A stretch of 31,482 nucleotides of DNA from Myxococcota bacterium (GTDB lineage: Bacteria; Myxococcota; XYA12-FULL-58-9; JALHOP01), in the NCBI GenBank assembly GCA_041288095.1, contig JBGGMJ010000166.1:1-31482 (forward strand), given 5' to 3'. Shown in pieces: positions 10,109 through 24,021 of this stretch (within the stretch, counting starts at the first letter, position 1; every line of letters begins with the position of its first letter). Both the position numbers and the translations under genes were made by a program. The notes beneath the pieces were generated by a model. The model made no database searches. It saw only the letters and a program-made list of their open reading frames with translations, and was not told where the DNA came from.

Positions 10109-11019
10109 CAACGCACCGGGAGGAAGAGGGGAGCGTCGCGGCCCGCCACCTGCACCAGCACGAGCTCGGGATTGCTCGTGAGTATGTTGAGCCCCTTCCA
10201 GCTCTTGAGCTTGCCGAGCGTCGACTCCTTCACCTTGCCTCCGCTTTCGCGGATGACCTTGCCGCCGGCGACAGCCACCCAACCCTTGGGTGTAGCGACG
10301 ACGCCCAGCACCGGCGATGTGCTGCCGTCCTTTTGCGCCTTGGTGAAGACCGACTCGGCTTGTTGACCGCAGACGCGTGCGATGTAACCGCGTGGCGTCG
10401 GCGCCGTCTGCGCGACCGACACCAACACGCAATCGGGTTTCACCAGGTCGTTGCTCAAGGCGCTGACGTTGGTGATGGCTGCATCGGCGAGCTTCACCTC
10501 GCGCGTGAGACCGGTGAGCCTGTTGATGCTGTAGAGCGGGCCAGCCTCCGACCCTACGAGCACGCCGTCGCTGGTCTGTACGCCGTGAACGACACCCGCG
10601 AAGGCAACCGGAGTCGTGAGCCTCGCGGCCTGCCAGCTGCCTCTATCGATCGACATGATCGTTTTAGCGGTCACGACGCTGAGCGGCCCCTTGCCGGCGA
10701 CGATGGCGTGGCCCTTGTCATCCGTGAGATTGAAGCGCGCCGCGACGGCGGCCAGGGGCGCGATGTCACGGAACTCGTAGGTGCCGCTGCCGAGGCCGGC
10801 GTTCATCACCACGAAGATGAGCGCCATGACGCCGCCATCGGCCGCGCGGTCCATGGATAAGACGAGCTCGGCGGCGATGCTGCTGGCGCCGGTCTTGCGG
10901 TCGTAGACCGTGACGGTCCCTCGCTCGGCTCGCAACCAAAGGCGATCCTTGGCGGCTTCGCCGTCGACGATATCGGTTGGGGCGGATAAAAGTGCAGCAA
11001 GTACAAATAGATAGGTCAC
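10108..11019 (-). CDS. Hypothetical exported beta-rich (propeller-like) protein
   Basis: Short hydrophobic N-terminus MTYLFVLAALLSAP, beta-strand-rich sequence, translationally coupled to alkC (TGATG). Confidence 0.6.
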   Translation of the reverse strand: MTYLFVLAALLSAPTDIVDGEAAKDRLWLRAERGTVTVYDRKTGASSIAAELVLSMDRAADGGVMALIFVVMNAGLGSGTYEFRDIAPLAAVAARFNLTDDKGHAIVAGKGPLSVVTAKTIMSIDRGSWQAARLTTPVAFAGVVHGVQTSDGVLVGSEAGPLYSINRLTGLTREVKLADAAITNVSALSNDLVKPDCVLVSVAQTAPTPRGYIARVCGQQAESVFTKAQKDGSTSPVLGVVATPKGWVAVAGGKVIRESGGKVKESTLGKLKSWKGLNILTSNPELVLVQVAGRDAPLFLPVR

Positions 11020-11062
11020 GTGCGATCGGCCTGCTTAAGTTGATTATTGTCTTGTTTACTAG

Positions 11063-11090
11063 TTGACTAATCAAGCGAAGCGCCTAAATT
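11063..11090 (+). promoter_or_regulatory. Putative sigma70-type promoter of clpB
   Basis: TTGACT(11063-11068)-N16-TAAATT(11085-11090)-N7-ATG(11098) within a conspicuously AT-rich intergenic patch. Confidence 0.55.
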
Positions 11091-11097
11091 AGGGCGC

Positions 11098-13701
11098 ATG
11101 CGAATGGACAAGTTCACCCAAAAAGCGCGCGAAGGCATCCTTGGAGCACAGAGCATCGCCCAAGAGAACGGCCAGCAGTCGGTCGAGCTCGAGCACTTGC
11201 TCATGAGCCTCATCCGCCAGGAAGGCGGCATCATCGTGCCCCTGCTCGAGAAGCTCGGGGCGAGCCCGAGCGAGCTCGAGCAGAGCTTGGTCGCGCGTAC
11301 CGAAAAGATGCCGCGCGTCTCGGGGGGTGACCCGTACCTCGGCAGCTCCCTCAACACCGCGGTGCAGTCGGCGCAGAAATACGCCAAGCAGCTGAACGAC
11401 GACTACGTCTCGACCGAGCATCTGTTGCTCGCCGCCGCCGAGGCCAAGGGTGAGCTCGGCAAGGTGCTCAAGGAAGCCGGCGTCACCGTCGACGCAATCC
11501 TCGGCTCGCTGAAGCAGATTCGCGGCTCGCACCGCGTCACCGACGACAATCCTGAAAATCGCTATCAAGCGCTTGGACGCTACGCGCGCGATCTCACGGA
11601 GTCGGCCAAGAAGGGCAAGACCGACCCCGTCATAGGTCGCGACGACGAGATTCGCCGCGTGCTCCAAGTCCTCGCCCGCCGCACCAAGAACAACCCGGTG
11701 CTCATCGGTGAGCCCGGTGTCGGCAAGACCGCTATCGTGGAGGGCCTCGCTCGCCGCATCATCGACGGCGACGTGCCCATGGGCATGAAGAACAAGCGCA
11801 TCGTCGCGCTCGACCTGGGCGCGCTGGTGGCCGGCGCCAAGTACCGCGGTGAGTTCGAAGATCGCTTGAAGGCGGTGTTGAAAGAGGTCACCGACTCGCA
11901 AGGCGAGATCATTCTCTTCATCGACGAGCTGCATACGCTGGTCGGCGCGGGCGCCGCGGAAGGCGCCATGGACGCCGCCAACTTGCTCAAGCCAGCGCTG
12001 GCGCGCGGCGAGCTGCACTGCATTGGCGCGACTACCTTGGACGAGTACCGCAAGCACATCGAGAAGGACGCGGCGCTCGAGCGTCGCTTCCAGCCGGTCA
12101 TGGTTCATCCACCGAGCGTCGAGGACACCATCTCGATCTTGCGCGGCTTGAAGGAGCGCTACGAGATCCATCACGGCGTGCGCATCCAGGACGGCGCCAT
12201 CGTGGCGGCGGCGACGTTATCGAACCGCTACATCACCGACCGCTTCTTGCCGGACAAGGCGATCGACTTGATCGACGAAGCGGCCTCGCATCTGCGTTTG
12301 CAGATCGATTCGCTGCCGACGGAGATCGATCAGCTCCAGCGCAAGATCACGCAGCTCGAGATCGAGAAGCAGGCCCTGCTCAAGGAGAAGGACGACGGCT
12401 CGAAGGCGCGCCTCACGCGGATCGAGATTGAGCTCTCCGACTTGAAGGAGCAGGACGCGGGTCTGCGCGCGCAGTGGCAAAAAGAGGTGCAGCAGATCAA
12501 AGCCGCGCGCACCGGTAAGGAAGAGCTCGAGGGCCTGCGCAACGAGCAGGCCGACGCCGAGCGACGCGGTGACCTGACCAAGGCGGCCGAGCTCAAGTAC
12601 GGCAAGATCCCCGAGGCCGAGCGCAAGCTGAAAGACGCCGAGGGAGCCGTCGACGGGCAGAGCGGCCGGCGCATGCTCAACGAAGAGGTCACCACCGAGG
12701 AGATCGCGCAGATCGTCGCTCGCTGGACCGGCATCCCTGTCAGCAAGATGCTCGAGAGCGAAATCGAGAAGCTCGTGCGCATGGAGGACAACCTCCGCCA
12801 CCGCGTCGTCGGTCAAGACGAAGCTCTGGCCGCTGTAGCGGACGCGGTGCGTCGCTCTCGCGCGGGGCTCGCTGATCCCAAGCGGCCGGTGGGCAGCTTC
12901 TTGTTCATGGGCCCAACGGGTGTCGGTAAGACCGAGACGGCGCGGGCGCTCGCGGAGTTCATGTTCGATGACGAGCACGCGATGGTGCGTATCGACATGA
13001 GCGAATACATGGAGAAGCACGCGGTGTCGCGCTTGGTCGGCGCGCCTCCCGGCTATGTCGGCTATGACGAGGGCGGTCAGCTCACCGAGGCGGTGCGACG
13101 TCGGCCTTACAGCGTCATTCTCTTCGACGAGATCGAGAAGGCGCATAGCGACGTGTTCAACATCCTCCTACAGGTGCTCGAGGATGGGCGGCTCACGGAC
13201 GGGCAGGGGCGCACGGTCGACTTCCGCAACAGCATCGTCATCATGACGAGCAATGTCGGCAGCGATGCCATCCAGCAGTATGCGGGTCGGGATGATCAGC
13301 GGATGCGCGACCTTGCCATGGACGCGCTGCGCAAGAGCTTCCGGCCGGAGTTCTTGAATCGCATCGACGAGATCGTATTCTTCAAGGCGCTTGGCGAGGA
13401 GCAGATCGTGGGGATCCTCGAGATCCAGCTGCGCGGGCTCGAGAAGCTCCTGGAGGACCGGAACATTCGCATTCTCGTGACTGACGAGGCCAAGCACTAT
13501 TTGGCGCGTGAAGGGTATGACGCGGTCTATGGTGCCAGGCCGCTGAAGCGGACGATTCAGCGGGAGATTCAGAATCCGTTGGCGACGGCGATCCTGCGCG
13601 GGGAGTTCAAGGCGGGGGATACGGTGCGTGTCGGAGCGGACGCGAGTGGGCTTACGTTCAGCAAGGATGCTCAGGATTCGGCGGCGGCGACCGTTCACTG
13701 A
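11098..13701 (+). CDS. clpB: ATP-dependent disaggregase ClpB
   Basis: Clp N repeats; NBD1 GEPGVGKT and ILFIDELH; coiled-coil M domain ([12 protein letters not shown]); NBD2 [39 protein letters not shown]. Confidence 0.98.
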
Positions 13702-13730
13702 GGGTTCGGACGGGGCTTGATGACCCGCGA

Positions 13731-13756
13731 GGAAACTTTCCCCCACCCCACGCATG
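13731..13756 (+). promoter_or_regulatory. Candidate ECF-sigma promoter copy 1 (GGAAACTTTC-N10-CGCATG)
   Basis: Intergenic, 9 nt before ATG 13766; 15 nt identical with the same spacing to the copy upstream of the ECF sigma gene. Confidence 0.6.
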
Positions 13757-13765
13757 GTCCCCCAC

Positions 13766-15364
13766 ATGCGTCCGTACTTCGCGATCCCGGCCCTCCTATG
13801 CGCCTGCACCGGCCAGATCGATAATCCACCCCCCAACGACGAACCGGCGGAGCTCGCTTCTCTCTGCCCAACCACCACGCTCTCTGTCGCCAAAGCCCCC
13901 CTCCGCCACCTCACGCGCGATCAATACGACAACACCGTCCGCGATCTTCTAGGCGACACCACCACCCCAGCCCGCTCCTTTCCCCCCGACGAGCGCCTGG
14001 GCCACTTCGTCGCCGGTCTCGCAGTCTCGCCACTCCTCGCCGACAAATACATCGAGACCGCGGCCGCGCTCGCCGCCCGCGCCATGCCCCGTCTCGACCA
14101 GCTACTCGGCTGCAACCGCGACGACGCCTGCGCCCATCGCTTCATCGAAACCTTCGGCCTCAAAACGTACAGAAGACCGCTAGAGCGGACGGAAGTCGAC
14201 GCTCTCGCCACCTTCTACGACGAAGCCAAAGCCGCCCATGGCTTCGACACCGCCATGCGCATGCTGCTCGAACGCCTCCTCTCCTCGCCATTCTTCGTCT
14301 ACCGCGTCGAAAGCGGCGGGCCCGGCGACCCGCGCCCCCTCACCAGCTACGAGACCGCCTCGCGCCTCTCGTATTTCCTCTGGCGCACGATGCCGGACGA
14401 CGAGCTCTTTGCCCGTGCCGCGGCCGGTGACCTCGATACCCAAGCCGGCATCGAAGCCGCTGCCCGCGATATGCTCGAGGATCCAAAAGCACGCCCCATG
14501 GTGCGCGACTTCGTCACCCAGTGGCTCGGCCTCTCTCGCCTCGACGAGGTCGCGAAGGATCCCGCTTTCTATCCGCAATTCGACGAGCAGCTCCGCGACA
14601 CCATGCGCGCCGAGACCGAGCGCTTCATCGACTACGTGCTCTTCGAAGGCGACGGCAAGCTCGCGACTCTTCTCTCCGCCTCCTACAGCTTCGTCGACGC
14701 GCGCCTCGCCGAGCTCTACGGCGCGGCGCCAGTCGCCGGCACCGAGCTCAAGCTCCGCAACTTCGACCCCACGCAGCGCGCCGGCCTCCTCACGCAAGCG
14801 AGCGTTCTCTCCATGCTCGCCAAGAGCAACCAAACCTCGCCCGTCCACCGTGGCCTCTTCGTGCGTGAGCGCCTTCTCTGTCAGCCACTCCCGCCCCCGC
14901 CGCCCGACGTCGCCGCCGAAATCCCGAGCCCCGACCCCAACAGCACCGCGCGCCAACGCTTCGCCGCGCACACCGAGAATGCCTCATGCGCCGCCTGTCA
15001 CCGCCTCGTGGACCCGATCGGTTTCGGTTTCGAAAACTACGACGGTATCGGCCGCTATCGCACACAAGATGGAACCCATGCCGTCGACGCCTCCGGCGAG
15101 ATCATCGCCGCTGATGACCTGAGCGGCGTGTTCACCGGCGCCGTCGAGCTCGCCCACAAGCTCGCGCACAGCAAGCAAGTCGAAGCCTGCTTCACCGAGC
15201 AATGGATGCACTATGCCTTGGGCCGTGGTGACAGAGACGATGCTTGCTCGTCCGCTAAAGTGAACGAGCGGTTCGCGGCCACCGGCGGCGACCTCACGGA
15301 GCTCATCATCGCCATCACCACCAGCGATGCCTTCCGCTATCTCGCTGCCTCGGAGGCACCATGA
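13766..15364 (+). CDS. DUF1592-family (DUF1587/1595/1592/1588/1585) lipoprotein with single c-type heme motif
   Basis: Lipobox LLCAC; LRHLTRDQYDNTVRDLLG, LLSSPFFVYRVE, YETASRLSYFLW, RAGLLTQ, TSPVHRG, CAACH...DPIGFGFENYDGIGRYR, YALGR. ATG 13766 preferred over 13754. Confidence 0.92.
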   Translation: MRPYFAIPALLCACTGQIDNPPPNDEPAELASLCPTTTLSVAKAPLRHLTRDQYDNTVRDLLGDTTTPARSFPPDERLGHFVAGLAVSPLLADKYIETAAALAARAMPRLDQLLGCNRDDACAHRFIETFGLKTYRRPLERTEVDALATFYDEAKAAHGFDTAMRMLLERLLSSPFFVYRVESGGPGDPRPLTSYETASRLSYFLWRTMPDDELFARAAAGDLDTQAGIEAAARDMLEDPKARPMVRDFVTQWLGLSRLDEVAKDPAFYPQFDEQLRDTMRAETERFIDYVLFEGDGKLATLLSASYSFVDARLAELYGAAPVAGTELKLRNFDPTQRAGLLTQASVLSMLAKSNQTSPVHRGLFVRERLLCQPLPPPPPDVAAEIPSPDPNSTARQRFAAHTENASCAACHRLVDPIGFGFENYDGIGRYRTQDGTHAVDASGEIIAADDLSGVFTGAVELAHKLAHSKQVEACFTEQWMHYALGRGDRDDACSSAKVNERFAATGGDLTELIIAITTSDAFRYLAASEAP

Positions 15365-16656
15365 AGAGACAGTCGCGGCGTGCGTTCCTCGGTAGTCTCG
15401 GCGCCACCGCGGCGTTGCTGCCGTTCTTGAAGTCGGTCCCGGCTGCCGCGCAGACGACGGGCGCGCCCAAGCGTCTCGTTCTCTTCTACACCTCGAACGG
15501 CACTATCCACGACCGCTGGTTGCCCGCCGGCACCGCCACCGATTGGCGGCTCAGCGAGATCTTGAGCCCTCTCGTCGGCTACGAAAACCGTATCAACGTC
15601 ATCGACGGTATCGACATGGCATCCGCCGGCGTTGGCCCGGGCGACGACCACGCGCGCTGCATGGCGAACCTGTGGACGGGCACCGAGACCGTCGAGCTCG
15701 CGCCCATCGGCACCGTGCCGGTCTACTCGGGGGGCGGTATTTCCGTCGATCAGCACATCGCCAAAGCCATCGGCGGCGCGACGCGCTTCTCGTCTCTGGA
15801 GCTCGGTGTCGAGACCGGGAGCGGCATCTTCGGCGCGATGTCTTACGCCGGCCGCGCCCAGCCGGTGCCGTCCGAGCAGACGCCGGCCGCCGCCTTCGAC
15901 CGCGTCTTCTCCGGCCTCACGGGCACGACTCCGGACGCGACAGCGGTGCTTCGCGAGCAACGTCGCAGCGTCCTCGACAGCCTCACGAGCGACTTTACCC
16001 GCCTTCGCAATCGCATCTCGATCGACGACCGCCCGCAGCTCGACGCGCATCTCGAAGCCATCTTCGATATCGAGCGCCGGCTCGGCTTGCCCAACGACAG
16101 CGAGACGGCCGCCTGCGTGCCACCGCAGCTCATCGGCGACGACGGCGGCTTCGAAGCCGTTGGCCGCTTGCACACCGACATTCTGGTTGCGGCGCTCGCT
16201 TGCGATGCGACCCGTGTCGCGAGTCTCCAGTGGTCGCAGACCCTGAGCTACACGGTCTTCTCGTGGCTCGGGCTCTCCGAATCGCACCACGCGCTCGGTC
16301 ATAGCGGCAGCGCGGGCGAGCCCGGCGTCACCGCCATCAACCACTGGTATGCCGAGCGCTTCGCCTATCTGCTCGACAAGCTGGCCGGCGTCACCGAAGG
16401 CGACCGCAAGCTCCTCGACAATTGCCTCGTGGTTTGGGGCAACGACATGGGCTACGGCCACACCCACTCGCGCAGCAACGTGCCGTTCGTCCTCGCGGGC
16501 AGCGCCGGCGCCACCGTGCTGACCGGCAGATTACTCCGCTATGGCGGTAAGCCACACAACGACCTCTTGGTGTCGGTCTGCAACGCCATGGGGTTGTCGA
16601 CGACCACCTTCGGCGACCCCGAATTCTGCAATGGACCGCTTCCTGGGTTGGTGTAA
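15361..16656 (+). CDS. DUF1552 (HXXSHH) family protein, Tat-exported
   Basis: Twin-arginine SRRAFLGSLG; PKRLVLFYTSNG, SVDQHIA, SLELG, RRSVLD, ALACDATRV, HHALGH, LLDN, H...NVPFVLAG, FGDP. ATGA overlap with the DUF1592 gene. Confidence 0.92.
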   Translation: MKRQSRRAFLGSLGATAALLPFLKSVPAAAQTTGAPKRLVLFYTSNGTIHDRWLPAGTATDWRLSEILSPLVGYENRINVIDGIDMASAGVGPGDDHARCMANLWTGTETVELAPIGTVPVYSGGGISVDQHIAKAIGGATRFSSLELGVETGSGIFGAMSYAGRAQPVPSEQTPAAAFDRVFSGLTGTTPDATAVLREQRRSVLDSLTSDFTRLRNRISIDDRPQLDAHLEAIFDIERRLGLPNDSETAACVPPQLIGDDGGFEAVGRLHTDILVAALACDATRVASLQWSQTLSYTVFSWLGLSESHHALGHSGSAGEPGVTAINHWYAERFAYLLDKLAGVTEGDRKLLDNCLVVWGNDMGYGHTHSRSNVPFVLAGSAGATVLTGRLLRYGGKPHNDLLVSVCNAMGLSTTTFGDPEFCNGPLPGLV

Positions 16657-16679
16657 CGCCGTCGCCATGGGATAGTGCC

Positions 16680-16701
16680 TTGCCCGGATCCGGCCGGGCA
16701 A
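16680..16701. other. GC-rich inverted repeat (8-bp stem) between DUF1552 and the next gene
   Basis: TTGCCCGG-atccgg-CCGGGCAA; no U-tract, so not a canonical intrinsic terminator. Confidence 0.45.
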
Positions 16702-16709
16702 CGAGACCC

Positions 16710-17639
16710 GTGCGGCCCACACTTCTCATCGCGGCGATCATCGCCACCCCCTTGGCGTCTGCGAAAGCGACGCGACCAGTCGCGGTCGACTGGTCGGGTG
16801 TGTCCGACAAGACGATCGAGCAGTGCCGGCTCCGCGGCCTCGAGGGTTTGCTCATCCAATCGCTCATCGAGGAGCACTACGCCGTCGTCGATAGGGTCGA
16901 CGAGAACGGCATCAGCGTCGCCGTGACCGCCGGGCTCTCGAGCTTCGAGCTTCGCGTCGCGAGCCAGGGCGTCGTCCAGTTCGACTGGATCGACATCCCC
17001 AAGCCTTGCGACAGCTCCATCCAGCTCGACATCGTCCAACGCGTCACCTCGATGACCCGCGCCGTCGATGTGAAGACCGGAGGCGCGGCCCGCCCGAGCG
17101 ATGTCGACCTGTCGGCGCCCCCAGCGCAGACGGGGCGGCGAGCCCAGGAGGAGAAGCGCCCTCCCGCGGTTTCTCGCGCGCCCATCGAGATCGACTTCCA
17201 GATGGCATTTCCCGGTCACCTGACGCCGCTCCTCGGGGGCGCTATCCAACTTCACGTCGATCTCGGGGCCGCGTTCCTGACGATCGCGCCCGAATGCACG
17301 GTGCGCAAAGAGACCGATCTCACGCTCTTCGAGCCGGCGCTCGCGGTCGGCATCGGCAAAACCCTGGGTGGGGCGCATCCGTTCGCCTTCGATATCGGGC
17401 TCGAGGCCGCCGGCATCGTCCACCTCTACTCGAGCAAATTCGACGATGTCGCCGAGACCGGCGGGCACGTCGACGGGCGTATCGGCCTACCCCTGGCGGT
17501 GACCGGCGGTCGGGGTCGCGCCACCATCACCGTCATGCCCTACATGCGTTTCTTACGCCTCGAGCATTTCTTTGCTGACTCGCGCACTTATACCTCCGAG
17601 CGCTGGGGTATACTGGTGCGTGTGGGTGTTGGCCTGTAA
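16710..17639 (+). CDS. Hypothetical exported protein, possible C-terminal outer-membrane beta-barrel
   Basis: Signal peptide (V)RPTLLIAAIIATPLASA; N-domain with a Cys pair; Pro/Ala linker; amphipathic beta-strands ending WGILVRVGVGL. GTG 16710 preferred. Confidence 0.65.
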   Translation: MRPTLLIAAIIATPLASAKATRPVAVDWSGVSDKTIEQCRLRGLEGLLIQSLIEEHYAVVDRVDENGISVAVTAGLSSFELRVASQGVVQFDWIDIPKPCDSSIQLDIVQRVTSMTRAVDVKTGGAARPSDVDLSAPPAQTGRRAQEEKRPPAVSRAPIEIDFQMAFPGHLTPLLGGAIQLHVDLGAAFLTIAPECTVRKETDLTLFEPALAVGIGKTLGGAHPFAFDIGLEAAGIVHLYSSKFDDVAETGGHVDGRIGLPLAVTGGRGRATITVMPYMRFLRLEHFFADSRTYTSERWGILVRVGVGL

Positions 17640-17666
17640 GGGCCACGAACAGGCTATTAGCGGGCG

Positions 17667-17692
17667 AGAAACTTTCGCCGACGTCGCGCATG
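17667..17692 (+). promoter_or_regulatory. Candidate ECF-sigma autoregulatory promoter copy 2 (AGAAACTTTC-N10-CGCATG)
   Basis: Directly upstream of the ECF sigma gene. Implies the true start may be GTG 17705 rather than the ATG inside the motif. Confidence 0.6.
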
Positions 17693-18214
17693 AATTCAGA
17701 GAGCGTGGGTGGCCAGCAGTTTGACGCGCTTTACCGCAAACACCATGACGCGGTGTTTCGGGCATGCTTGCGTTTTGCCGCCGGGGATCGGGATTGGGCG
17801 ATGGATCGCGCGCACGATGTCTTCGTAATTTTGGCTCGCCGCATGGGGAAGCTTACCGACACCGACGACCTGGGCGGCTGGCTCTATCGCGTGGCCGTGA
17901 ACACCTGCCTCATGGACCTGCGGCGGGCGCGCGGCTGGCGCAAGGTGAAGGACCAGCTCTTCGGCTGGGTGAGCCCGTCCGCCTCGACCCCCGAGCGCAA
18001 CGCTCAAGCCAAACGCGACGTGTCGAAGCTCGAGCTCGCGGTGCGCGAGCTGCCGGTGAAGCAGCGCGCGCTCATGACCCTCATACACCTCGACGGTAAG
18101 ACCCAGTCCGAAGCGGCGCGCCTGTTGTCGCTGTCGGAGGGACAGGTCTCGAAGCTCTACAAGAAGGCCCTCGCCACGCTGCAAGCGAGCGACTGGGAGA
18201 TCGACCATGGCTAG
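17690..18214 (+). CDS. ECF-family (sigma-70 group 4) RNA polymerase sigma factor
   Basis: Region 2 FDALYRKH...AMDRAHDVF...GGWLYRVAVNTCLMDLRR; region 4 HTH LPVKQRALMTLIHLDGKTQSEAARLLSLSEGQV. Overlaps the FecR gene by 8 nt. Start ATG 17690 or GTG 17705. Confidence 0.92.
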   Translation: MNSESVGGQQFDALYRKHHDAVFRACLRFAAGDRDWAMDRAHDVFVILARRMGKLTDTDDLGGWLYRVAVNTCLMDLRRARGWRKVKDQLFGWVSPSASTPERNAQAKRDVSKLELAVRELPVKQRALMTLIHLDGKTQSEAARLLSLSEGQVSKLYKKALATLQASDWEIDHG

Positions 18215-19259
18215 CCGCTTGAACCTAGAGCGCGAAGCCGCGGCGGTGAGGTCGCGGATCGATGCCGAGCGCTTGAGCGGACGCGAGTCCGTTGAGCTCT
18301 CGCACCGCATCGAAGCCAGCTTGAGCGGCGAGCGCCAGGGGTGGCGCGTCGCGTTCGCGGCTAGCGGCGTTCTCTGCGTCATCGCCCTCTGGCTGGTCGT
18401 CGCCCTACGTCCGCCCCAGCGGAATGAGCAAGACTGCATGCGCGAGCACGCCGGCTTCATCGACATCGATCCCGCGTGCAGGGGGCCCGTCAGCATCGAG
18501 CGGGGCGGCGACGTCATCCTCGCTCACGCCGGCGCTCATCTCGAAGAGAGCGCGCAAGGCATGCGTGTCCGCCATGGCAAAGTGAGCTTCGTGGTGCAGA
18601 AGCGTGAGCGCGGCGCCACCATGCGCGTCCTGGTGTCGCACGGCGCCATCGAGGTGGTCGGCACCCGCTTCACCGTCACCCAGGAGGATCAGGGCGGCAA
18701 GGTGAAGCTCGAAGAGGGCAGCATCAAGTTCCACTGGCTCGGCGGCGACGAGAGCACCGTGGTGCCGGGTGAGGAGCTCGAATGGCCGCCGCGTCCCAAG
18801 CCTACGCCGGTGACCCTCGACGACATCCCGCTCGATGCACCGGTGGAGGTCGTGGCGCCGCCGAAGCCGCAAGCACCCGCGAAGGCGCCGCGGCCGACTC
18901 CGCCGAAACCGCCGGAGGCGCCGAAGGAAGAAAAGCCGGAAGAGCAGGCCGCCGAAGCGGACGAGCCGAGCGGACCGATGCTCATGGAAGACGTGCTCAA
19001 GAAGATGTCGACGCTGCGCAGCCAGCACCGCTATCGCGAAGCGGTCGAGTTGCTTCGAGCGCAGAGTGACCGCGGTGACTTCAGTGGTCTTCAGCAGGCG
19101 CGGTTGTCGTTCGAGATTGGTCTGCTCCTGCAAGATCGCATGGACGACAAAGCCGGCGCCTGCGCGCAATGGAAGCAGCACGCCCGCCGCTATCCCGATG
19201 ACGCGAGCCACGCCGACCGGGTGCAGGAGTACATCCGAGCTTGCGAGGAAGCTCCTTGA
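18207..19259 (+). CDS. FecR-domain transmembrane anti-sigma factor (copy 1) with C-terminal TPR-like helices
   Basis: Short cytoplasmic N-domain, one TM, FecR motifs VRHGKVSFVV, IEVVGTRFTV, VKLEEGSI, VVPGE; Pro/Glu linker; helical C-domain HARRYPD. Confidence 0.85.
   Translation: MASRLNLEREAAAVRSRIDAERLSGRESVELSHRIEASLSGERQGWRVAFAASGVLCVIALWLVVALRPPQRNEQDCMREHAGFIDIDPACRGPVSIERGGDVILAHAGAHLEESAQGMRVRHGKVSFVVQKRERGATMRVLVSHGAIEVVGTRFTVTQEDQGGKVKLEEGSIKFHWLGGDESTVVPGEELEWPPRPKPTPVTLDDIPLDAPVEVVAPPKPQAPAKAPRPTPPKPPEAPKEEKPEEQAAEADEPSGPMLMEDVLKKMSTLRSQHRYREAVELLRAQSDRGDFSGLQQARLSFEIGLLLQDRMDDKAGACAQWKQHARRYPDDASHADRVQEYIRACEEAP
18438..18467 (+). repeat. 30-bp exact repeat shared by the two FecR paralogs (second copy 21557-21586)
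   Basis: ATGCGCGAGCACGCCGGCTTCATCGACATC (MREHAGFIDI) occurs in both genes. Confidence 0.9.
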
Positions 19260-20524
19260 GGCGCGTCGCGCTGTTCGCCGTGCTCGCGTCGGCCTGCGGG
19301 ACCTATCGCTTCCAGCACGGGCCGGAAGACCAAGACGAGCTGGTCACTTGCCCACCATGCGCTCTTCCGGAGGTCTGCGACGAGTCGCGCCATGTTTGCA
19401 GCACCGCGACCCTCACCTGGGAGGAGCTCGGCGGGTCGGCGACGGGCAGCGGCGTCAGCGGCACGGGCGCGCAGGACGTCGCCGTCGCGGTCACGGCGGA
19501 AGGCAATCCCGTGGTTGCCTGGTCCGCGGGCGACGAGATCTTCGCGAGCCGATGGACCGGAGCCGCCTGGGAGCAGCTTGGCAGCGGCGTGAGCTTGAGC
19601 GCGGCGGTTTCCGAGGAACCGGCGATCGCAATCGACGGAGTGGGGCGCGTGCTCGTTGCCTGGACCGAAGGCAGCGACATGGCCAAGGACATCTATCTGC
19701 GCCGCTGGGATGGCAGCGCCTGGCAGGAGCTCGACGGCTCCGCGCAAGGCGCGGGCATCAGCGGAATCGGCCTGACCTCGATGCAGCCGCAGCTCGCGGT
19801 CACTCCGAGCGACGAGCCGGTCGTGGCGTGGCTCGAGGACACCGGCCCGACCGCTTGGGAGATCTACGCGCGACGTTTCGACGGCGCCGATTGGCGCGAA
19901 TATGACGGTTCGGCGCAGGGCGATGGCTTGAGCAAGGCATCGGTAACCGCCTGGAACCCGTCACTCGCAGTCCGCGATAGCGGTAATCCGTGCGTGGCTT
20001 GGAGCGCCGGCGACACGACCGTCGACATGCGTCTGCGCTGCTGGAATGGCACGACCTGGCTCGCGCTCGGGCCTTCGGCAGACCCCGGTGGCATTTCGCC
20101 GACGACCTCGCATGCCTTCAACTCATCGCTTGCTATCGACGGCCTGGGGCGCGCTTGGGTGTCGTGGCGCGGCAATGCCGAAGGTCGCTGGGAAGCCTAT
20201 CTGCGCTACTTCGAGAATGGTGCTTGGCGTGAGCTCGCGGGATCCGCTCAAGTGAGCGGTGACATCGCCGCGTCCGATCACGTCAAATTGGCCATGAGCT
20301 CGAGCGACCGTCCCGTCGTGGCGTGGTTGCAAGACACCGGCGTTGGCCGAACGGTCGCGATGCGCTTCTGGACGGGCGACGAGTGGGTCGACCTTGCGGA
20401 ACCCGGCAATGAAATCTCGGCGGTAGGCTCCATCGACGTCATGAAAGTCGCAGTCGCCTCCGGGGGTTCGGTGATCGCAACGTGGATCGACGGGGCCCGC
20501 GTGTACCTCAAGCGCCTGCGCTAG
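19256..20524 (+). CDS. Lipoprotein with Cys-rich N-module and seven ~50-58 aa Trp-rich repeats (probable 7-bladed beta-propeller)
   Basis: TTG start overlapping the FecR stop; lipobox ASAC; repeat consensus WxELxGSAxGxGIS...PxLA...GxPVVAW...IYxRRWxGxxW. Confidence 0.8.
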   Translation: MRRVALFAVLASACGTYRFQHGPEDQDELVTCPPCALPEVCDESRHVCSTATLTWEELGGSATGSGVSGTGAQDVAVAVTAEGNPVVAWSAGDEIFASRWTGAAWEQLGSGVSLSAAVSEEPAIAIDGVGRVLVAWTEGSDMAKDIYLRRWDGSAWQELDGSAQGAGISGIGLTSMQPQLAVTPSDEPVVAWLEDTGPTAWEIYARRFDGADWREYDGSAQGDGLSKASVTAWNPSLAVRDSGNPCVAWSAGDTTVDMRLRCWNGTTWLALGPSADPGGISPTTSHAFNSSLAIDGLGRAWVSWRGNAEGRWEAYLRYFENGAWRELAGSAQVSGDIAASDHVKLAMSSSDRPVVAWLQDTGVGRTVAMRFWTGDEWVDLAEPGNEISAVGSIDVMKVAVASGGSVIATWIDGARVYLKRLR

Positions 20525-20525
20525 A

Positions 20526-20551
20526 GGAAAGATCGCCGATGGCCGCGCATG
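20526..20551 (+). promoter_or_regulatory. Candidate ECF-sigma promoter copy 3 (GGAAAGATCG-N10-CGCATG)
   Basis: Intergenic, same GAAA-N15-CGCATG spacing, 11 nt before ATG 20563. Confidence 0.5.
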
Positions 20552-20562
20552 GAGGTGATGCC

Positions 20563-21378
20563 ATGCGCATCGCCCCCGTCCTCTTCCTCTCGTTGCTGCC
20601 ACGTATGTCCGCGGCGGCGGTCAATGAGCCGGGCTTCCTGCAGGAACGCTGGACCGGCATCGAGGGGCGCAACGTCGCCGATTTCACCGATGACGCATCG
20701 TTCGACGGGCCCCCGGACAGCACCGCCATTCTCTCCGACCTCGATACCGGCGCCGACACCGGCGACTACTTCGGTGAGCGCATCAGCGGGTATCTGCGGC
20801 CGACGGTCAGCGGCGACTACCGCTTTTGCGTCGCCGGCGACGACCAAGCAGTCTTGTACCTCTCGAGCGACGAGCAGCCGGCTAACGCCGTCGTCGTCGC
20901 CTCGCTCCCGCCTCTGGGCTACAGCAACCCAGGCGACTGTGACGCTTACCCAGAACAGCGATCACAGGCCGTCCGGCTCGAGGCGGGAGCGCCTTACTAC
21001 ATCATGGTTCTCCACAAGGAGAACTTCGGCGGCGATAACCTATCCGCGAAATGGTCGGGACCGGGCATCAGCGAGTCCGTGATCACGGATAGCCACGTCA
21101 CCGTGACCAACGACCAGGACGAGGCTCCCGAAGCGGAGACGCCCGAAGAGGACGACGAAGAGCCGCTCACACCGCCGAGCGCGCCGACGACGCGGCCGGC
21201 GACACCGGCTCCGGTCGATGAGGACAGCGCCGGCAAGCGGGTCGACGGCAACGTCCTCACCTGCGCGGCATGGCACCCCGATCCGTCTTGCATCGTCCTG
21301 CTCTTGGCGGCAGTGGGCCGAGTTTGTAGAAAGAGAGCCGATGGGCGACTTTCGACGCCAGGCAGACATCGCGACTAG
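20563..21378 (+). CDS. PA14-domain (carbohydrate-binding) surface protein with acidic/Pro linker and Myxo-CTERM-like tail
   Basis: GGAGG SD; signal peptide; FGERISGYLRPTVSGDYRFCVAGDDQAVLYLSSD, VRLEAGAPYYIMVLHKENFGGDNLSAKWSGPG; tail ...TCAA...IVLLLAAVGRVCRKR. Confidence 0.85.
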   Translation: MRIAPVLFLSLLPRMSAAAVNEPGFLQERWTGIEGRNVADFTDDASFDGPPDSTAILSDLDTGADTGDYFGERISGYLRPTVSGDYRFCVAGDDQAVLYLSSDEQPANAVVVASLPPLGYSNPGDCDAYPEQRSQAVRLEAGAPYYIMVLHKENFGGDNLSAKWSGPGISESVITDSHVTVTNDQDEAPEAETPEEDDEEPLTPPSAPTTRPATPAPVDEDSAGKRVDGNVLTCAAWHPDPSCIVLLLAAVGRVCRKRADGRLSTPGRHRD

Positions 21379-22369
21379 ACACGCGCGGAGCACGGACGAC
21401 GCTCTCCTCGAAGGGCTGCGTCACGAGAAGGCTGCTCTCCATGGCGCTCGCCGTGGCCTCGCCATCGGCCTGATTGCCGGCGGCATCGTCCTCGCGGCCG
21501 GCGTTTGGCTCTTCGTTGCCTTCCGGCCGTCGAACGCGGGCGATCCCAACGCATGTATGCGCGAGCACGCCGGCTTCATCGACATCAAGCCGTCCTGCGC
21601 CGCACCGGTCAGCATCGAGCGCGATGGCGATGTGATCTTGGCGCATCCCGGCGTTTCACTCGAAGAGCGCGGCAGCGGCTGGCGCGTCCGGCACGGCACG
21701 GCGAGCTTCGCCGCGCGAGCGCGCACCGATGGTAACGCGCTGCGCGTCTTGGTTTCCCACGGGGTCATCGCGATCACCGGGACGCGCTTCACCGTCGTTC
21801 AAGAAGAAGGCAAGGGCCGCGTGAAGGTCGACGAGGGAACCGTCGTCTTTCATGACGACGACGGTACCGATGTGCCGCTCACGGCGGGCTCCGAGCTCAC
21901 CTGGCCGCGCCCGCCGACCGCGGAGGTCGTGGTGCTGAACGCGATTCCTCTGACGGGGCCGAAGCCGCCCGCGGCGAGAGCGGGTGTACCGCGGGGTGCG
22001 GTGGCGAGGGCGAATGAAGCGGCGGCCGCCGACGAAGAAGAGGAAGACGAAGAAGAGGTCGAAGAAGAAGAAGCGCCGCCGACGGGCGTGCTGTCGATGG
22101 AAGACATCTTGAAGCGCATCTCGACGCTGCGCCGCCAGAAACGTCCACGCGAAGCGGTCGAGCTCTTGCTCTCCCAGAGCCAACGCGGCGACATCACTCC
22201 GGCGCAGATGGCGCGGCTCTCGTGGGAGATTGGCCTCTTCCTGCAGGACAGCGGTGAAAGAGCCGCGACGTGCAATCACTGGAAGAACCACGCGCGCAAG
22301 TATCCCGACGACGCCGCGCACTCCGACCGCGTGCGCGAGCTCATCAAGACGTGCGAAACGAGCCAGTGA
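21341..22369 (+). CDS. FecR-domain transmembrane anti-sigma factor (copy 2), paralog of 18207-19259
   Basis: One TM; CMREHAGFIDI, VSIERDGDVILAH, RVLVSHG, ITGTRFTV, VDEGTV; poly-Glu linker; MEDILKRISTLR...HARKYPDD. ATG 21341 preferred. Confidence 0.85.
   Translation: MGDFRRQADIATRHARSTDDALLEGLRHEKAALHGARRGLAIGLIAGGIVLAAGVWLFVAFRPSNAGDPNACMREHAGFIDIKPSCAAPVSIERDGDVILAHPGVSLEERGSGWRVRHGTASFAARARTDGNALRVLVSHGVIAITGTRFTVVQEEGKGRVKVDEGTVVFHDDDGTDVPLTAGSELTWPRPPTAEVVVLNAIPLTGPKPPAARAGVPRGAVARANEAAAADEEEEDEEEVEEEEAPPTGVLSMEDILKRISTLRRQKRPREAVELLLSQSQRGDITPAQMARLSWEIGLFLQDSGERAATCNHWKNHARKYPDDAAHSDRVRELIKTCETSQ
22031..22072 (+). repeat. Low-complexity GAA/GAG run encoding acidic linker DEEEEDEEEVEEEE
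   Basis: GACGAAGAAGAGG occurs twice, followed by (GAA)4. Confidence 0.7.
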
Positions 22370-22419
22370 CACAGCGGTTCGACTTCGTCTTGGAGTCGTG
22401 ATTAGCCTCGGGCCGCCGC

Positions 22420-24021
22420 ATGACACGCATCGAAAGCGCGCTCGATAAGGGCAGCAAGGACTTCGAAGGCAATCGCAAGGCGATGCTCGCGCTGCTCGAC
22501 GAGGTGCGCGAGGTCCATCGTCATATCGCGCTCGCGTCGGAGCGCAGCGCCGCCAAGTTCAAGGAGCGTGGGCAGTTGTTGCCGCGCGAGCGCCTGCAGG
22601 TGCTCCTCGATCCGGGCAGCGACTTCATCGAGCTCTGTCCGTTCGCCGGCTACGGCATGCACGATGACGACGGCAAGGAACGTCTCGAAGGCGGCAGCTC
22701 GATCACCGGCATTGGTTTCGTCGAAGGCGTGCGCTGCGCCATCTCCGTGTCCGACAGCGGCATCAAGGGCGGCGCCATCTCCCCGCAGGGGATGCGCAAG
22801 CTGCTGCGCATCCAAGAAGTGGCCGCCGACAACAAGCTACCGCTCGTGTCGCTCGTCGAGAGCGCGGGAGCGAACCTTCTGCATCAAGCCGAGATGTTCG
22901 TCGAAGGCGGGCGCACGTTCGCCAATCAAGCGCGTCTGTCAGCCGCGGGCATTCCGCAAATCACCGTGGTGCACGGTTCCTCGACGGCGGGCGGCGCGTA
23001 CATGCCCGGCCTCTCCGACGTGGTCATCGTGGTGCGCGAGCGCGCCAAGATCTTCCTCGCTGGTCCTCCGCTCTTGCGGGCAGCGACCGGAGAGATCGCG
23101 ACCGACGAAGAGCTGGGTGGCGCCGAGCTACACGCCGGTGTCACCGGGCTCGCCGAACATATCGCCGCCGACGATTACCAAGCGATCGTTTTGGCGCGCG
23201 AGGTCGTCAGCAAGCTCGGCTGGGACAAGGCGGCGCCGCTCGCCGACACGAAACCGCCGCGCTATCCGCCCGACGAGCTCGCTGGTCTCACGCCCGTTGA
23301 CTACAAGAAGCCGTACGACGCGCGCGAGCTCATCGCCCGCATCGTCGACGACTCGGATTTCCTCGAGGTCAAAGCCGCCTACGGCAGCGACACGGTGTGT
23401 GGACGGGCCTACGTCCATGGCGTTGCCTGTGGCTTCATCGGCAATAACGGACCGATCACGCCGGCCGGCGCCACCAAGGCGGCGCAATTCATCCAGCAGT
23501 GCAATCAAACGCGCACACCGATCTGCTTCCTGCAGAACACCACCGGCTACATGGTGGGCACCGAGGCGGAGCGTGCCGGCATCGTCAAGCACGGCTCGAA
23601 GATGATTCAGGCGGTCGCCTGCTCGCGCGTCCCGCACGTGACCTTCCTGGTGGGCGGTGCTTTCGGCGCTGGGAACTACGGCATGTGCGGCCGCGCCTAC
23701 GACCCGCGCTTCATCTTCGCCTGGCCGAACGCGCGCACCGCGGTCATGGGGCCCGAGCAAGCCGCGACCGTCATGGCGATCCTCGCCGAGGAACGGGCGC
23801 GCCGCACCGGCGAGAAGGTCGACGTCGAGGCCATCAAGTCGAACATCATCGGCGCCATGGAGCCGCAGACGCGGGCGCTCTTCGCGTCCGCTCGCTTGTG
23901 GGACGACGGCATCATCGACCCGCGCCACACTCGCTTCATCTTGGCATTCGCGCTCGCGACTTGCCGCGAGGCCGAGTCGCGCGTCTTGCAGCCGTCGACC
24001 TTCGGCGTGGCGAGGATGTGA
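22420..24021 (+). CDS. atuC: Acyl-CoA carboxylase carboxyltransferase (beta) subunit, geranyl-CoA carboxylase AtuC-like
   Basis: RGQLLPRERLQVLLDPGS, VESAGANL, HGSSTAGGAYMPGLSD, LQNTTGYMVG, GAGNYGMCGRAYDPRF, C-terminal FGVARM. Confidence 0.85.
   Translation: MTRIESALDKGSKDFEGNRKAMLALLDEVREVHRHIALASERSAAKFKERGQLLPRERLQVLLDPGSDFIELCPFAGYGMHDDDGKERLEGGSSITGIGFVEGVRCAISVSDSGIKGGAISPQGMRKLLRIQEVAADNKLPLVSLVESAGANLLHQAEMFVEGGRTFANQARLSAAGIPQITVVHGSSTAGGAYMPGLSDVVIVVRERAKIFLAGPPLLRAATGEIATDEELGGAELHAGVTGLAEHIAADDYQAIVLAREVVSKLGWDKAAPLADTKPPRYPPDELAGLTPVDYKKPYDARELIARIVDDSDFLEVKAAYGSDTVCGRAYVHGVACGFIGNNGPITPAGATKAAQFIQQCNQTRTPICFLQNTTGYMVGTEAERAGIVKHGSKMIQAVACSRVPHVTFLVGGAFGAGNYGMCGRAYDPRFIFAWPNARTAVMGPEQAATVMAILAEERARRTGEKVDVEAIKSNIIGAMEPQTRALFASARLWDDGIIDPRHTRFILAFALATCREAESRVLQPSTFGVARM

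Follow-up and report, generated by a model that had tools for sequence, protein, structure and literature searches.

A conserved bipartite motif at three gene boundaries of a Myxococcota locus, the probable promoter type of its ECF sigma factor

Genes and motif copies of the locus

The DNA analysed here (the window) is the whole 31,482-nucleotide stretch of contig JBGGMJ010000166.1 from a Myxococcota bacterium. It encodes an ECF sigma factor with an adjacent predicted FecR-type anti-sigma factor and carries three copies of a bipartite motif (sites 1–3); these features, their neighbours and two segments by which the window differs from its nearest relative (locus L001) are as follows:

13703..16702, segment present in the window only, delimited by a break in blastn colinearity with L001: site 1, DUF1592 gene, DUF1552 gene and a hairpin at 16680-16701
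13731..13756, + strand, site 1, predicted ECF promoter: -35 GGAAACT at 13731-13737, -10 CATG at 13753-13756
13766..15364, + strand, DUF1592-family gene (Pfam PSD3, PSD5, PSD4, PSCyt3 and PSD2)
15361..16656, + strand, DUF1552 (HXXSHH) gene (Pfam, E 9.5e-75), with a 4-nt overlap with the DUF1592 stop
16710..17639, + strand, conserved gene at -1 of the sigma gene, 309-aa secreted protein; start GTG 16710 from the L001 alignment
17667..17692, + strand, site 2, predicted autoregulatory promoter of the sigma gene: -35 AGAAACT, -10 CATG
17705..18214, + strand, ECF sigma factor gene (Pfam Sigma70_r2 and Sigma70_r4_2); GTG 17705 if transcribed from site 2
18207..19259, + strand, FecR-type anti-sigma factor gene (Pfam FecR, E 2.4e-7)
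19241..20524, + strand, BNR/sortilin-like repeat protein gene (weak BNR_4 match, below cut-off)
20526..20551, + strand, site 3, predicted internal promoter 5' of the PA14 gene: -35 GGAAAGA, -10 CATG
20528..21258, second segment present in the window only, from comparison with L001: site 3 and most of the PA14 gene
20563..21378, + strand, secreted PA14-domain protein gene (Pfam PA14); ATG 12 nt past the motif end
21341..22369, + strand, second FecR-like protein gene, anti-sigma paralog (Pfam FecR); start ATG 21341 from the L001 alignment

On the + strand site 1 reads 13731 GGAAACTTTC-ccccacccca-CGCATG 13756, site 2 reads 17667 AGAAACTTTC-gccgacgtcg-CGCATG 17692 and site 3 reads 20526 GGAAAGATCG-ccgatggccg-CGCATG 20551. 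The original prediction had described three motif copies at gene boundaries, beginning 35, 38 and 37 nt before likely start codons at 13766, 17705 and 20563, and the coordinates, strand and distances all proved right: site 1 starts 30 nt past the ClpB stop (13701), site 2 starts 28 nt past the stop of the preceding gene (17639) and site 3 starts 2 nt past the stop of the BNR-like gene (20524). A search of both strands with GAAA-N15-CGCATG gave these three matches, all on the + strand and at gene boundaries, whereas 100 dinucleotide shuffles averaged 0.07 matches and none had three; CGCATG by itself is not enriched in the window (42 observed, 37.1 expected). The exact sequence GAAACTTTC occurs in the window at sites 1 and 2 only, and these two are identical at 20 of 25 positions; what site 3 has in common with them is GAAA and CGCATG. 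The pattern was chosen post hoc, so the independent test is a matrix made from foreign loci (below) and not the shuffle count.

Several other origins for the sites were tried and rejected. No sigma-70-like promoter was predicted in the three gaps that carry them, and an Rfam search of the window, gaps included, gave 0 matches, by which a known RNA element in the gaps was rejected. A sigma-32 (heat-shock) element at site 1, 3' of ClpB, does not fit in spacing or sequence when inspected against the sigma-32 consensus. Hairpins of the type CGCAUG...CAUGCG can be drawn at site 1 (z -2.3) and site 3 (z -1.6) and are absent at site 2, and the relatives' sites that were inspected have no comparable repeat. 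Recent duplication does not explain the likeness of sites 1 and 2, as their flanks are unalignable and their spacers match at just 5 of 10 bases.

Comparison with L001, whose sigma factor is 91% identical, separates a conserved core from variable surroundings. By blastn colinearity sites 1 and 3 are absent from L001 together with their genes (the junctions of segment 13703..16702 were read in the sequence and its hairpin 16680-16701 was folded), and 39 codons of the C-terminus are what L001 retains of the PA14 gene; the genes of both segments are therefore accessory. Composition was not decisive for a foreign origin of the DUF1592 cassette (it has a third-position C bias only). Homologs of the -1 gene stand at -1 in L001–L004 and L013, the nearest Atlas clusters of its protein family are mostly from Myxococcota, and the C-terminal half of the protein looks, as a lead only, like an outer-membrane beta-barrel. 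The BNR-like gene probably shares a transcript with the sigma and anti-sigma genes, and the second FecR-like protein is 49–52% identical to the anti-sigma factor (tblastn).

Conservation of the motif and matrix scan

Phylogenetic footprinting, the check that the original prediction called for, showed the bipartite motif to be conserved: of 22 Myxococcota relatives, 17 have it upstream of the sigma gene. In the other five loci (L003, L005, L007, L009 and L019) no motif adjoins the sigma gene, which counts against the promoter reading. An unbiased two-block word count in the 160 nt upstream of 21 related Myxococcota sigma genes (window and L001 excluded) returned GGAAA-17-CGTG as the top word, present in 13 of the 21 loci, where the best word of 200 control draws, taken from other parts of the same loci, was found in 3.5 loci on average and never in more than 5. 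The -10 block of the 17 motif-bearing loci is CGTG in 13, AGTG in one, CATG in two and CATC in one, and it sorts by lineage: CATG at all three window sites, in L001 and in L002, CATC at both L004 sites, and CGTG in the 13 distant loci. The motif spans exactly 26 nt in 13/13 CGTG loci with free spacer sequence, and the invariant spacer length noted in the window thus holds across relatives as well. Site 2 occupies the place of the family motif, and L001 retains it with one change; identity between the two loci begins abruptly at GAGAAAC, and the sequence further upstream has diverged.

From these alignments the element is read as a -35 block GGAAA(C/G)T and a -10 block C(G/A)TG separated by a fixed 17-nt gap, and CGCATG as a lineage variant of a family -10 consensus CGCGTG. 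The original definition of the motif is therefore right as to a bipartite element and needs correction in its cores, and its CGCATG does not stand as the -10 of the family.

A matrix was built from the sites of 13 relatives, none of them from the window, and among ~63,000 window positions its top three were exactly the three sites: site 1 (22.2 bits), site 3 (17.8 bits) and site 2 (12.2 bits), followed by a next-best position of 11.1 bits. In Markov-shuffled windows 22.2 bits was attained in 0/300, 17.8 bits in 2% and 12.2 bits somewhere in 30%, and the third-best score averaged 7.5 bits with a maximum of 13.3; the score of site 2 is thus weak when taken alone, which counts against the promoter reading. 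When 80 loci (1.33 Mb) were scanned, 28 matches reached at least 16 bits, including the 13 training sites. Fourteen of the 15 non-training matches fall within the 22 Myxococcota loci, and by context ten lie upstream of genes, three inside coding sequence and two (L007 +6136 and L009 +8873) were unresolved. BNR_4 or sortilin-like genes carry the motif in L004, L013, L014 and L018. A DUF1592 gene near the sigma gene of L005 has no motif upstream, and none was seen at that of L019, where the upstream region is broken by Ns.

Taken together these results favour, with a probability of roughly 0.7, the reading that all three sites belong to the promoter type that the local ECF sigma factor (17690/17705-18214) recognises, as originally proposed; we infer their sigma dependence from motif, position and conservation. 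The proposed place of the DUF1592–DUF1552 pair in the regulon needs a correction: site 1 is its predicted promoter, through which the sigma factor would control it, and the pair is accessory, like the PA14 gene, and missing from the nearest relative.

Two narrower alternatives accept an ECF promoter type and differ as to which sites the local sigma factor uses. Sites 1 and/or 3 could be read by a paralogous sigma factor elsewhere in the genome, or there could be cross-talk: L004 lies in the same MAG as L001, and there a 47%-identical sigma paralog has an anti-sigma factor of its own that is FecR-like, plus a target promoter identical to window site 1 at 22 of 26 positions, C-rich spacer included. 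However, both L004 promoters end in CATC, whereas the three window sites end in CATG as does the local sigma factor's own promoter, and sites 1 and 3 lie at most 4 kb from the local sigma gene; we regard reading by a paralog as unlikely. Slightly less likely still is that only sites 1 and 2 function, site 3 being a match by chance or a vestige and the PA14 gene being expressed by read-through from the sigma operon with its own Shine-Dalgarno sequence. The small part that site 3 shares with the other two sites would fit this, as would the 2% of shuffled windows that attain its score and the 38-nt gap between the BNR-like and PA14 genes, in which there is no terminator-like site. Downstream of site 3 stands a canonical Shine-Dalgarno sequence, GGAGGTGAT (GGAGG at 20552-20556, at normal spacing to the PA14 ATG 20563), a point absent from the original prediction; it lies between the -10 block and the ATG, so a transcript starting there would lack it, which also speaks against a promoter at site 3. 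Nonetheless, site 3 is the second-best window match to a matrix made without the window, is closer than site 2 to the family -35 (GGAAAG), and has both the lineage-specific CATG and an ATG at +12, and we retain it as a predicted promoter.

Start codons and the geometry of transcripts

Of 13 relatives, 11 have an in-frame start codon 8–13 nt 3' of the motif; in the window it lies at +10 (site 1), +13 (site 2) and +12 (site 3). The near-leaderless geometry pointed out in the original prediction is thus a family trait, and such spacing implies, if the blocks are promoters, leaderless or near-leaderless mRNAs. Transcription is expected to start 9–10 nt past the flipped -10 base, and leaderless ECF promoters have been described, as have spacers of 16–18 bp (PMC7776599, from part of its text); leaderless mRNAs are defined by at most 5 nt between transcription start and start codon in the part of PMC12754779 used here.

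The same geometry admits a different explanation, in which the blocks are not a promoter: translation would begin at the ATG or GTG of the second block, and GGAAA would serve as a translation signal upstream of it or be bound by a different DNA-binding protein. At sites 1 (13754) and 2 (17690) no in-frame ATG of the ORF precedes the one within CGCATG, which the original prediction did not note; ATG 17690, an alternative annotatable start of the sigma gene, falls inside the -10 element of site 2, and the DUF1592 gene would start at 13754 if the motif ATG is used or else at ATG 13766, 10 nt past the motif end. Should a motif ATG be the true start, the -10 reading would fail for a transcript from that promoter. 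The motif [A/G]TG is in frame and open in nine of the 17 loci, including the window, L001 and L002, gene callers begin many homologs at the corresponding position, and a start at the ATG within the motif gives an N-terminus equal in length to that of many homologs, all of which runs against the promoter reading. L002 is awkward for that reading because its in-frame starts are the motif ATG and a TTG 4 nt past the motif, with no usable start further downstream, and a transcription start downstream of the -10 cannot serve them; the closest in-frame starts of L016 and L017 are the GTG within the motif (in L017 also an ATG right behind it) and a GTG at +31.

In seven of the 17 loci, however, the motif [A/G]TG is out of frame or leads to a stop, and there an in-frame ATG stands at +8 to +13; in the remaining locus, L004, the second block reads CATC. 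Two asymmetric blocks at a fixed 17-nt gap with a free spacer are moreover ECF geometry, and GGAAA lies at least 20 nt before the second-block codon, too distant for a ribosome site. There is also a precedent in Myxococcus xanthus, where an annotated ATG of the DdvS/DdvA system coincided with a mapped ECF transcription start and the true start codon was moved downstream (PMC6061681, in the part consulted). We therefore consider a translational or other non-promoter origin of the blocks very improbable and keep to the promoter reading. The start codons 13754, 17690, TTG 16680 and ATG 21218 are probable mis-annotations.

Sigma and anti-sigma factors, known systems and a possible mechanism

The sigma factor consists of sigma-2 and sigma-4 domains only and has the size of ECF group 4 (about 170–200 aa); it scores 84 bits against TIGR02937 (cut-off 42.9), ECF SigE, SigW and SigL lead a PDB profile search, and its closest protein relatives (P0003–P0013) are 45–81% identical. 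In 17 of the 22 Myxococcota loci the sigma gene is preceded by GGAAA-N17-C(G/A)TG, in keeping with the bipartite promoters of ECF factors, which have spacers of 16–18 bp and often stand before the sigma gene itself. Assignment to an ECF group failed, as the NCBIfam subfamily and equivalog models were all under their cut-offs (TIGR02989, the Rhodopirellula/Verrucomicrobium sigma family, gave 45.7 bits against 124.55). The divergent region 4.2 helix (GQVSKL) that the original prediction saw as atypical is indeed divergent, but a homolog alignment shows it to be common to the whole family and not a peculiarity of the local copy.

A homolog of the anti-sigma factor stands at +1 of the sigma gene in 17 relatives. 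In the predicted structure of the protein (pLDDT 81.5) a pair of short helices at the N-terminus is followed by a single transmembrane helix, a beta-sandwich of FecR type, a linker rich in Pro and a C-terminal domain that is TPR-like; in Foldseek the model matches 4m0h (BDI_1681, a putative anti-sigma factor; E 8e-7) and 6ovk_R (PupR C-terminal signalling domain; E 1.4e-5); the five-helix C-terminal domain matches TPR proteins weakly (E 0.03–0.1, TMt 0.56–0.73), and Pfam finds no TPR in it. A predicted complex of the two proteins scored 0.73 (best of three controls 0.00), a value attained by 116/157 solved complexes and 2/215 mismatched pairs that may reflect likeness to already solved complexes; the runs had at least 85% of contacts in common, with partner pLDDT of at least 73.

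The promoters resemble those of the autoregulated B. subtilis SigW/SigV-type groups, given as TGAAAC / CGTAT for ECF245 and TGAAACTTT / CGTC for ECF30 in the part of PMC7826278 used here: both consist of two short, asymmetric blocks, the -35 containing AAC and the -10 being of CGT type, and have a spacer of fixed length (~16–18 bp) and free sequence and a copy before the sigma gene itself, and the window -35 GAAACTTT is the same word as that of ECF30 (PMC7826278, same part). Unlike them, the family has the consensus GGAAA(G/C)T and (C)GCGTG(G), with A for G (CATG) in the window lineage, a start codon 8–13 nt past the -10, and an anti-sigma factor of FecR type. The single transmembrane helix and periplasmic FecR beta-sandwich of the latter recall FecI/FecR/FecA (ECF239–243 in the same part of PMC7826278). 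However, there is no adjacent TonB-dependent transducer in the window or loci examined (no TonB-dependent receptor domain in 24 window ORFs or 63 ORFs of eight related loci), the cytoplasmic part of the window anti-sigma factor is only ~45 residues long, a promoter motif stands before the sigma gene itself, and the conserved upstream neighbour is a ~310-aa protein that may be an outer-membrane barrel; unlike PupR, the anti-sigma factor continues beyond ~120 matching residues with the Pro-rich linker and TPR-like domain. [quoted passage not shown] For the myxobacterial ECF210, ECF216 and ECF267 the used part of the large ECF re-classification PMC7826278 reports no conserved promoter motif, and its supplementary text contains no GGAAA motif. 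DdvS/DdvA, another ECF pair from a myxobacterium, likewise has several cognate promoters grouped around the locus that encodes it; DdvS is a different sigma factor with different targets (CRISPR-Cas) (PMC6061681, in the part consulted).

If the sites are promoters of this sigma factor, the locus could work as follows. The adjacently encoded anti-sigma factor would hold the sigma factor at the membrane until an envelope signal frees it; free sigma–RNA polymerase would bind the -35 GGAAA(C/G)T and -10 C(A/G)TG with 17 nt between them (here a -10 region CGCATG), and transcription would start ~9–10 nt past the motif, at the start codon or at most 4 nt from it. Site 2 would give positive autoregulation of the sigma/anti-sigma/BNR-like operon, site 1 would drive DUF1592–DUF1552, possibly with read-through into the -1 gene and the sigma gene, and the PA14 gene and the second FecR-like gene would be transcribed from site 3 as an internal promoter.

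All of this is ECF biology of an ordinary kind. A wider reading, which we put forward tentatively and think rather doubtful as a whole, is that the locus represents an undescribed Myxococcota module of outer-membrane barrel, ECF sigma factor and FecR-TPR anti-sigma factor, a TonB-independent analogue of cell-surface signalling with leaderless promoters, a cassette-remodelled regulon and a shifted -10 specificity. If it were true, promoters of the form GGAAA(G/C)T-N15-GCGTG would be built for leaderless mRNAs, close relatives would come to differ in their regulon through gain or loss of promoter-bearing gene cassettes, the DUF1592–DUF1552 pair and the PA14 protein would be under envelope-stress control, and at the -10 a preference for G would have given way to A along with changes in sigma region 2. 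A literature search found no paper naming both DUF1592 and DUF1552, and a tie of this pair of unknown function to a regulator would offer a route to the condition of its expression. The alignments also supply a testable promoter consensus for a hitherto unstudied myxobacterial ECF family, and CATG and CGTG form a natural pair of -10 variants for studies of ECF specificity.

Three predicted promoters and their genes

The original prediction had described three forward-strand copies of the motif GAAA-N15-CGCATG at gene boundaries, and re-reading of the sequence found all three exactly where it had placed them. They are listed here as sites 1, 2 and 3 with the genes that surround them.

Predicted promoters (read from the sequence) and genes
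11098-13701: ClpB
13731 GGAAACTTTC-N10-CGCATG 13756, + strand: site 1, predicted promoter
13766 (or 13754)-15364: DUF1592-family protein
15361-16656: DUF1552
16710-17639: 309-aa secreted protein without a Pfam family (the "-1 gene", directly upstream of the sigma gene)
17667 AGAAACTTTC-N10-CGCATG 17692, + strand: site 2, predicted promoter
17705 (or 17690)-18214: ECF sigma (the local sigma)
18207-19259: FecR-domain membrane protein (putative anti-sigma factor)
19241-20524: BNR-like repeat protein
20526 GGAAAGATCG-N10-CGCATG 20551, + strand: site 3, predicted promoter
20563-21378: PA14 protein
21341-22369: second FecR-like protein
from 22420: acyl-CoA carboxylase cluster

The full pattern occurs 3 times where 0.07 occurrences are expected, and none of 100 shuffled sequences reached 3; CGCATG by itself is not enriched in the window (42 found, 37 expected), and exact GAAACTTTC was found in the window only at sites 1 and 2. 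Because the pattern was defined post hoc, after being seen in the window, a test independent of the window was sought. Sigma-70-like promoter prediction over 10500-23000 gave a single promoter, ahead of ClpB, and none elsewhere, and an Rfam search of the window returned no matches. The longest-ORF starts 16680, 21218 and 20482 of the ORF list are probably wrong: alignment with L001, a relative's locus (titled uncultured Bdellovibrionales MAG) whose sigma is 91% identical to the local one, supports GTG 16710 for the -1 gene and ATG 21341 for the second FecR-like gene, and ATG 20563 of the PA14 gene has a Shine-Dalgarno sequence ahead of it. Sites 1 and 3 also carry an inverted repeat, CGCATG-N8/10-CATGCG (13751-13770 and 20546-20567), in which the start codon (ATG CGN) is the pairing partner of the -10 block and whose fold z-scores are -2.3 and -1.6, respectively; it is missing at site 2, and nothing comparable was seen in the relatives' sites inspected.

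Conservation of the motif across the sigma family

Close relatives of the local sigma are few (25 proteins at E <= 1e-10, 16 of which form, with the local sigma, the 17-sequence alignment A1). A search of genome contigs with the sigma family gave 80 loci totaling 1,333,167 bases, of which 22 are Myxococcota relatives: L001; L004, which comes from the MAG of L001 and encodes a paralogous sigma with 47% identity; and L002, L003, L005-L021 and L077, whose sigmas are 36–52% identical and whose titles are mostly Myxococcota. The remaining 58 are more distant ECFs from other phyla. GGAAA(G/C)T...(C)GCGTG lies ahead of the sigma gene in 13 distant loci (L006, L008, L010-L018, L020 and L021), and the span from GGAAA to CGTG is exactly 26 nt in all 13. 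When every 5-mer/gap/4-mer word was counted in the 160 nt upstream of 21 sigma genes (window and L001 excluded), the top word was GGAAA-17-CGTG (13 of 21 loci); in 200 control draws taken from other parts of these loci, the best word reached a mean of 3.5 and a maximum of 5 loci. At equal spacing the -10 block reads AGTG in L077, CATG in L001 and L002, as at all three window sites, and CATC in L004. The conservation upstream of sigma relatives that the original prediction called for was thus found, in that the element (-35 GGAAA(C/G)T plus -10 C(G/A)TG, variants included) stands beside the sigma gene in 17 of the 22 Myxococcota loci; it is absent there in L003, L005, L007, L009 and L019. In L005 and L008 an element lies ~1.1 kb upstream, ahead of the -1 gene, and in L009 a divergent pair of elements lies ~1.1 kb upstream. 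The L007 sigma match, which has no promoter motif next to it, is directly preceded by short tandem repeats at ~7610-7700, three copies of a 12-nt unit followed by two of a 13-nt unit. Conservation between window and L001 sets in abruptly at GAGAAAC; upstream of that point the two cannot be aligned.

A position weight matrix trained on the 13 foreign sites, none from the window, ranked sites 1, 3 and 2 (22.2, 17.8 and 12.2 bits) as the top three window positions on both strands, the next match having 11.1 bits. Of 300 Markov shuffles, none had a maximum that reached 22.2, whereas 2% reached 17.8 and 30% reached 12.2; the third-best score in shuffles averaged 7.5 with a maximum of 13.3. Over the 80 loci there are 28 matches of at least 16 bits, including the 13 training sites; 14 of the 15 others are in the 22 Myxococcota loci and one (L037, 16.3 bits) is among the other 58. 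Ten of these 15 are upstream of genes, three are within coding sequence (L001 -14627, L005 +14881 and L037) and two (L007 and L009) are unclassified. The targets that recur are the -1 gene, genes for BNR_4 or sortilin-like proteins, and a flavin amine oxidase gene. Divergent motif pairs stand back to back in L013 (7758-7821), L014 (4758-4833) and L018 (4537-4618), fronting genes for the oxidase (start MTRPFRV...) and for a BNR_4 protein; they lie ~5 kb from the sigma gene in L014 and L018 and ~2 kb from it in L013.

The 17 of 22 conservation and the ranking by a matrix built from foreign sites support the proposal that the motif is the cognate promoter of the local sigma. The sequence comparisons support the three sites as a cognate ECF promoter set and the DUF1592-DUF1552 pair and the PA14 gene as accessory regulon members, and the local sigma is probably autoregulated. 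Such a promoter set is of a well-known kind; its value here is a usable promoter consensus for an unstudied sigma family and an entry point to the regulation of two domains whose function is unknown. In the portions available of the ECF re-classification (PMC7826278), no conserved promoter motif is reported for the myxobacterial groups ECF210, ECF216 and ECF267, and the GGAAA motif is not listed in the corresponding main and supplementary text. The FecI-type definition fails here, since no TonB-dependent transducer was found among the 24 window ORFs or the 63 ORFs of eight related loci, and our literature search found no paper naming both DUF1592 and DUF1552.

Geometry of the predicted promoters, start codons and the putative sigma/anti-sigma pair

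The GGAAA-N17-CGT arrangement agrees with the ECF spacer of 16–18 bp on which Todor et al. relied, as given in the part of that paper available (PMC7776599). Eleven of 13 relatives, all but L016 and L017, have an in-frame start 8–13 nt past the motif end (ATG in 10, GTG in 1), and the window starts lie at +10 (ATG 13766), +13 (GTG 17705) and +12 (ATG 20563). The flipped -10 base is presumably the base after GT; if so, the start site is 9–10 nt past the motif and leaders are 0–4 nt long. Judged from this spacing, transcripts from the three predicted promoters are probably near-leaderless, and leaderless ECF promoters starting with A are reported in the same part of PMC7776599. At sites 1 and 2 the first in-frame ATG is the one within CGCATG, and a sigma begun there would have an N-terminal length equal to that of many homologs. 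Of 17 loci, 9 have the motif (A/G)TG in an open frame with the gene, 7 have it out of frame or followed by a stop, and the 17th (L004) reads CATC; this is no more than chance, and it is therefore not a conserved start codon. Myxococcus xanthus offers a precedent: in the portion available of PMC6061681, the annotated MXAN_7283 ATG falls on the position where transcription from a DdvS-dependent promoter was mapped to begin, and the authors moved the start codon downstream. In L002 the sole downstream in-frame start is a TTG 4 nt past the motif, which a start site past the -10 element is unable to serve; the -1 gene stop abuts the motif there, and the L002 sigma may be translated from a -1 gene read-through transcript.

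Sigmas of the CATG/CATC and CGTG clades differ in region 2 (WAMDR versus WAEDL/V, and VAVNTCLM versus VTANLALS), and a co-variation by lineage of region 2 with the -10 block is suggestive only, comprising two or three independent lineages. CATC occurs at both L004 sites, the sigma promoter and a target promoter at 12030-12055 (minus strand) that fronts a sortilin/BNR-like gene. This target is identical to site 1 at 22 of 26 positions, C-rich spacer included, so site 1 could be read by a paralogous sigma; the differing last base (G/C) is a mild argument that the local sigma reads site 1. GQVSKLYKKA was confirmed in region 4.2 of the local sigma, where it aligns to GTVRSRIHRG of solved SigE. Its divergence, which the original prediction took to fit an atypical specificity, is real; it is not special to this copy, since S.G.VSKL is invariant or nearly so across A1, and it goes with a -35 reading GGAAA(G/C)T. 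Sigma-4 searched alone also matched FliA, SigF and WhiG.

In 17 relatives the gene next downstream of the sigma gene encodes a homolog of the anti-sigma factor. The structure model of the latter (pLDDT 81.5, pTM 0.43) has the following parts.

Parts of the anti-sigma factor in the structure model
Residues 2-40: two N-terminal helices
Residues 50-66: transmembrane helix
Residues 78-193: beta-sandwich
Between beta-sandwich and C-terminal domain: Pro-rich linker, disordered
Residues 260-348: C-terminal five-helix domain

Foldseek matched the beta-sandwich to the putative anti-sigma BDI_1681 (4m0h, E 8e-7) and to the signalling domain of PupR (6ovk_R, E 1.4e-5), and the five-helix domain weakly to TPR proteins (E 0.03–0.1). 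In that TPR-like domain C319, H325 and C346 are invariant among the 17 homologs and W322 is nearly so; these residues could form a disulfide or metal-sensing site. The predicted complex of the sigma with anti-sigma residues 1-50 scored 0.73 (best of three controls 0.00), passing a mark that 116 of 157 solved complexes attained, as did 2 of 215 mismatched pairs; at least 85% of contacts were common to the runs, and partner pLDDT was at least 73. This pass may reflect likeness to already solved sigma/anti-sigma complexes. The conserved -1 gene codes for a secreted protein, and most of the Atlas clusters closest to this protein's family are from Myxococcota. The C-terminal half of the protein is similar to small beta-barrels of the outer membrane (Atlas TM 0.44–0.46 by query), which is a lead only toward such a barrel. 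Together with the FecR-type anti-sigma factor it recalls cell-surface signalling, but without a TonB-dependent receptor.

Segments present in the window only

The window and L001 are colinear at 80–84% identity save for two window-only segments, each of which begins within ~30 nt of a motif copy.

Window-only segments
13703-16702, versus L001 9020-9027: site 1, DUF1592, DUF1552 and a hairpin
20528-21258, versus L001 12838: site 3 and most of the PA14 gene

Each extra gene set carries its own motif copy, which agrees with a role of the motif as their promoter. Close relatives therefore differ in regulon content by entire cassettes of promoter and gene, and sites 1 and 3, in segments missing from L001, have no counterpart there to compare with. 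In L001 only a few bases separate the ClpB stop from the GTG of the -1 gene, with a 3-nt GAG microhomology at the junction. At L001 12839-12949 (window 21259-21378) the last 39 PA14 codons survive, 72% identical and overlapping the start of the next gene; this C-terminal remnant favours gene loss and suggests that the PA14 gene was deleted in L001. The surviving tail has a Cys, a hydrophobic stretch and then basic residues and resembles a C-terminal sorting tail, and it had no matches among NCBIfam sorting-signal models. A perfect 8-bp stem, TTGCCCGG/CCGGGCAA, lies at 16680-16701, 3' of DUF1552 at the right edge of the first segment; the stem lacks a T run and folds with a z-score of -0.6. The DUF1592-DUF1552 pair lies less than 10 kb from a sigma of this family in 3 of 23 loci (the window, L005 14009-17106 and L019 2498-5470), and only the window copy has the motif ahead of it, the L019 upstream region being broken by Ns. 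The DUF1592 gene shows an unusually strong third-position bias of C over G, with a skew of -0.53 compared to -0.31 to +0.01 in 20 other window genes.
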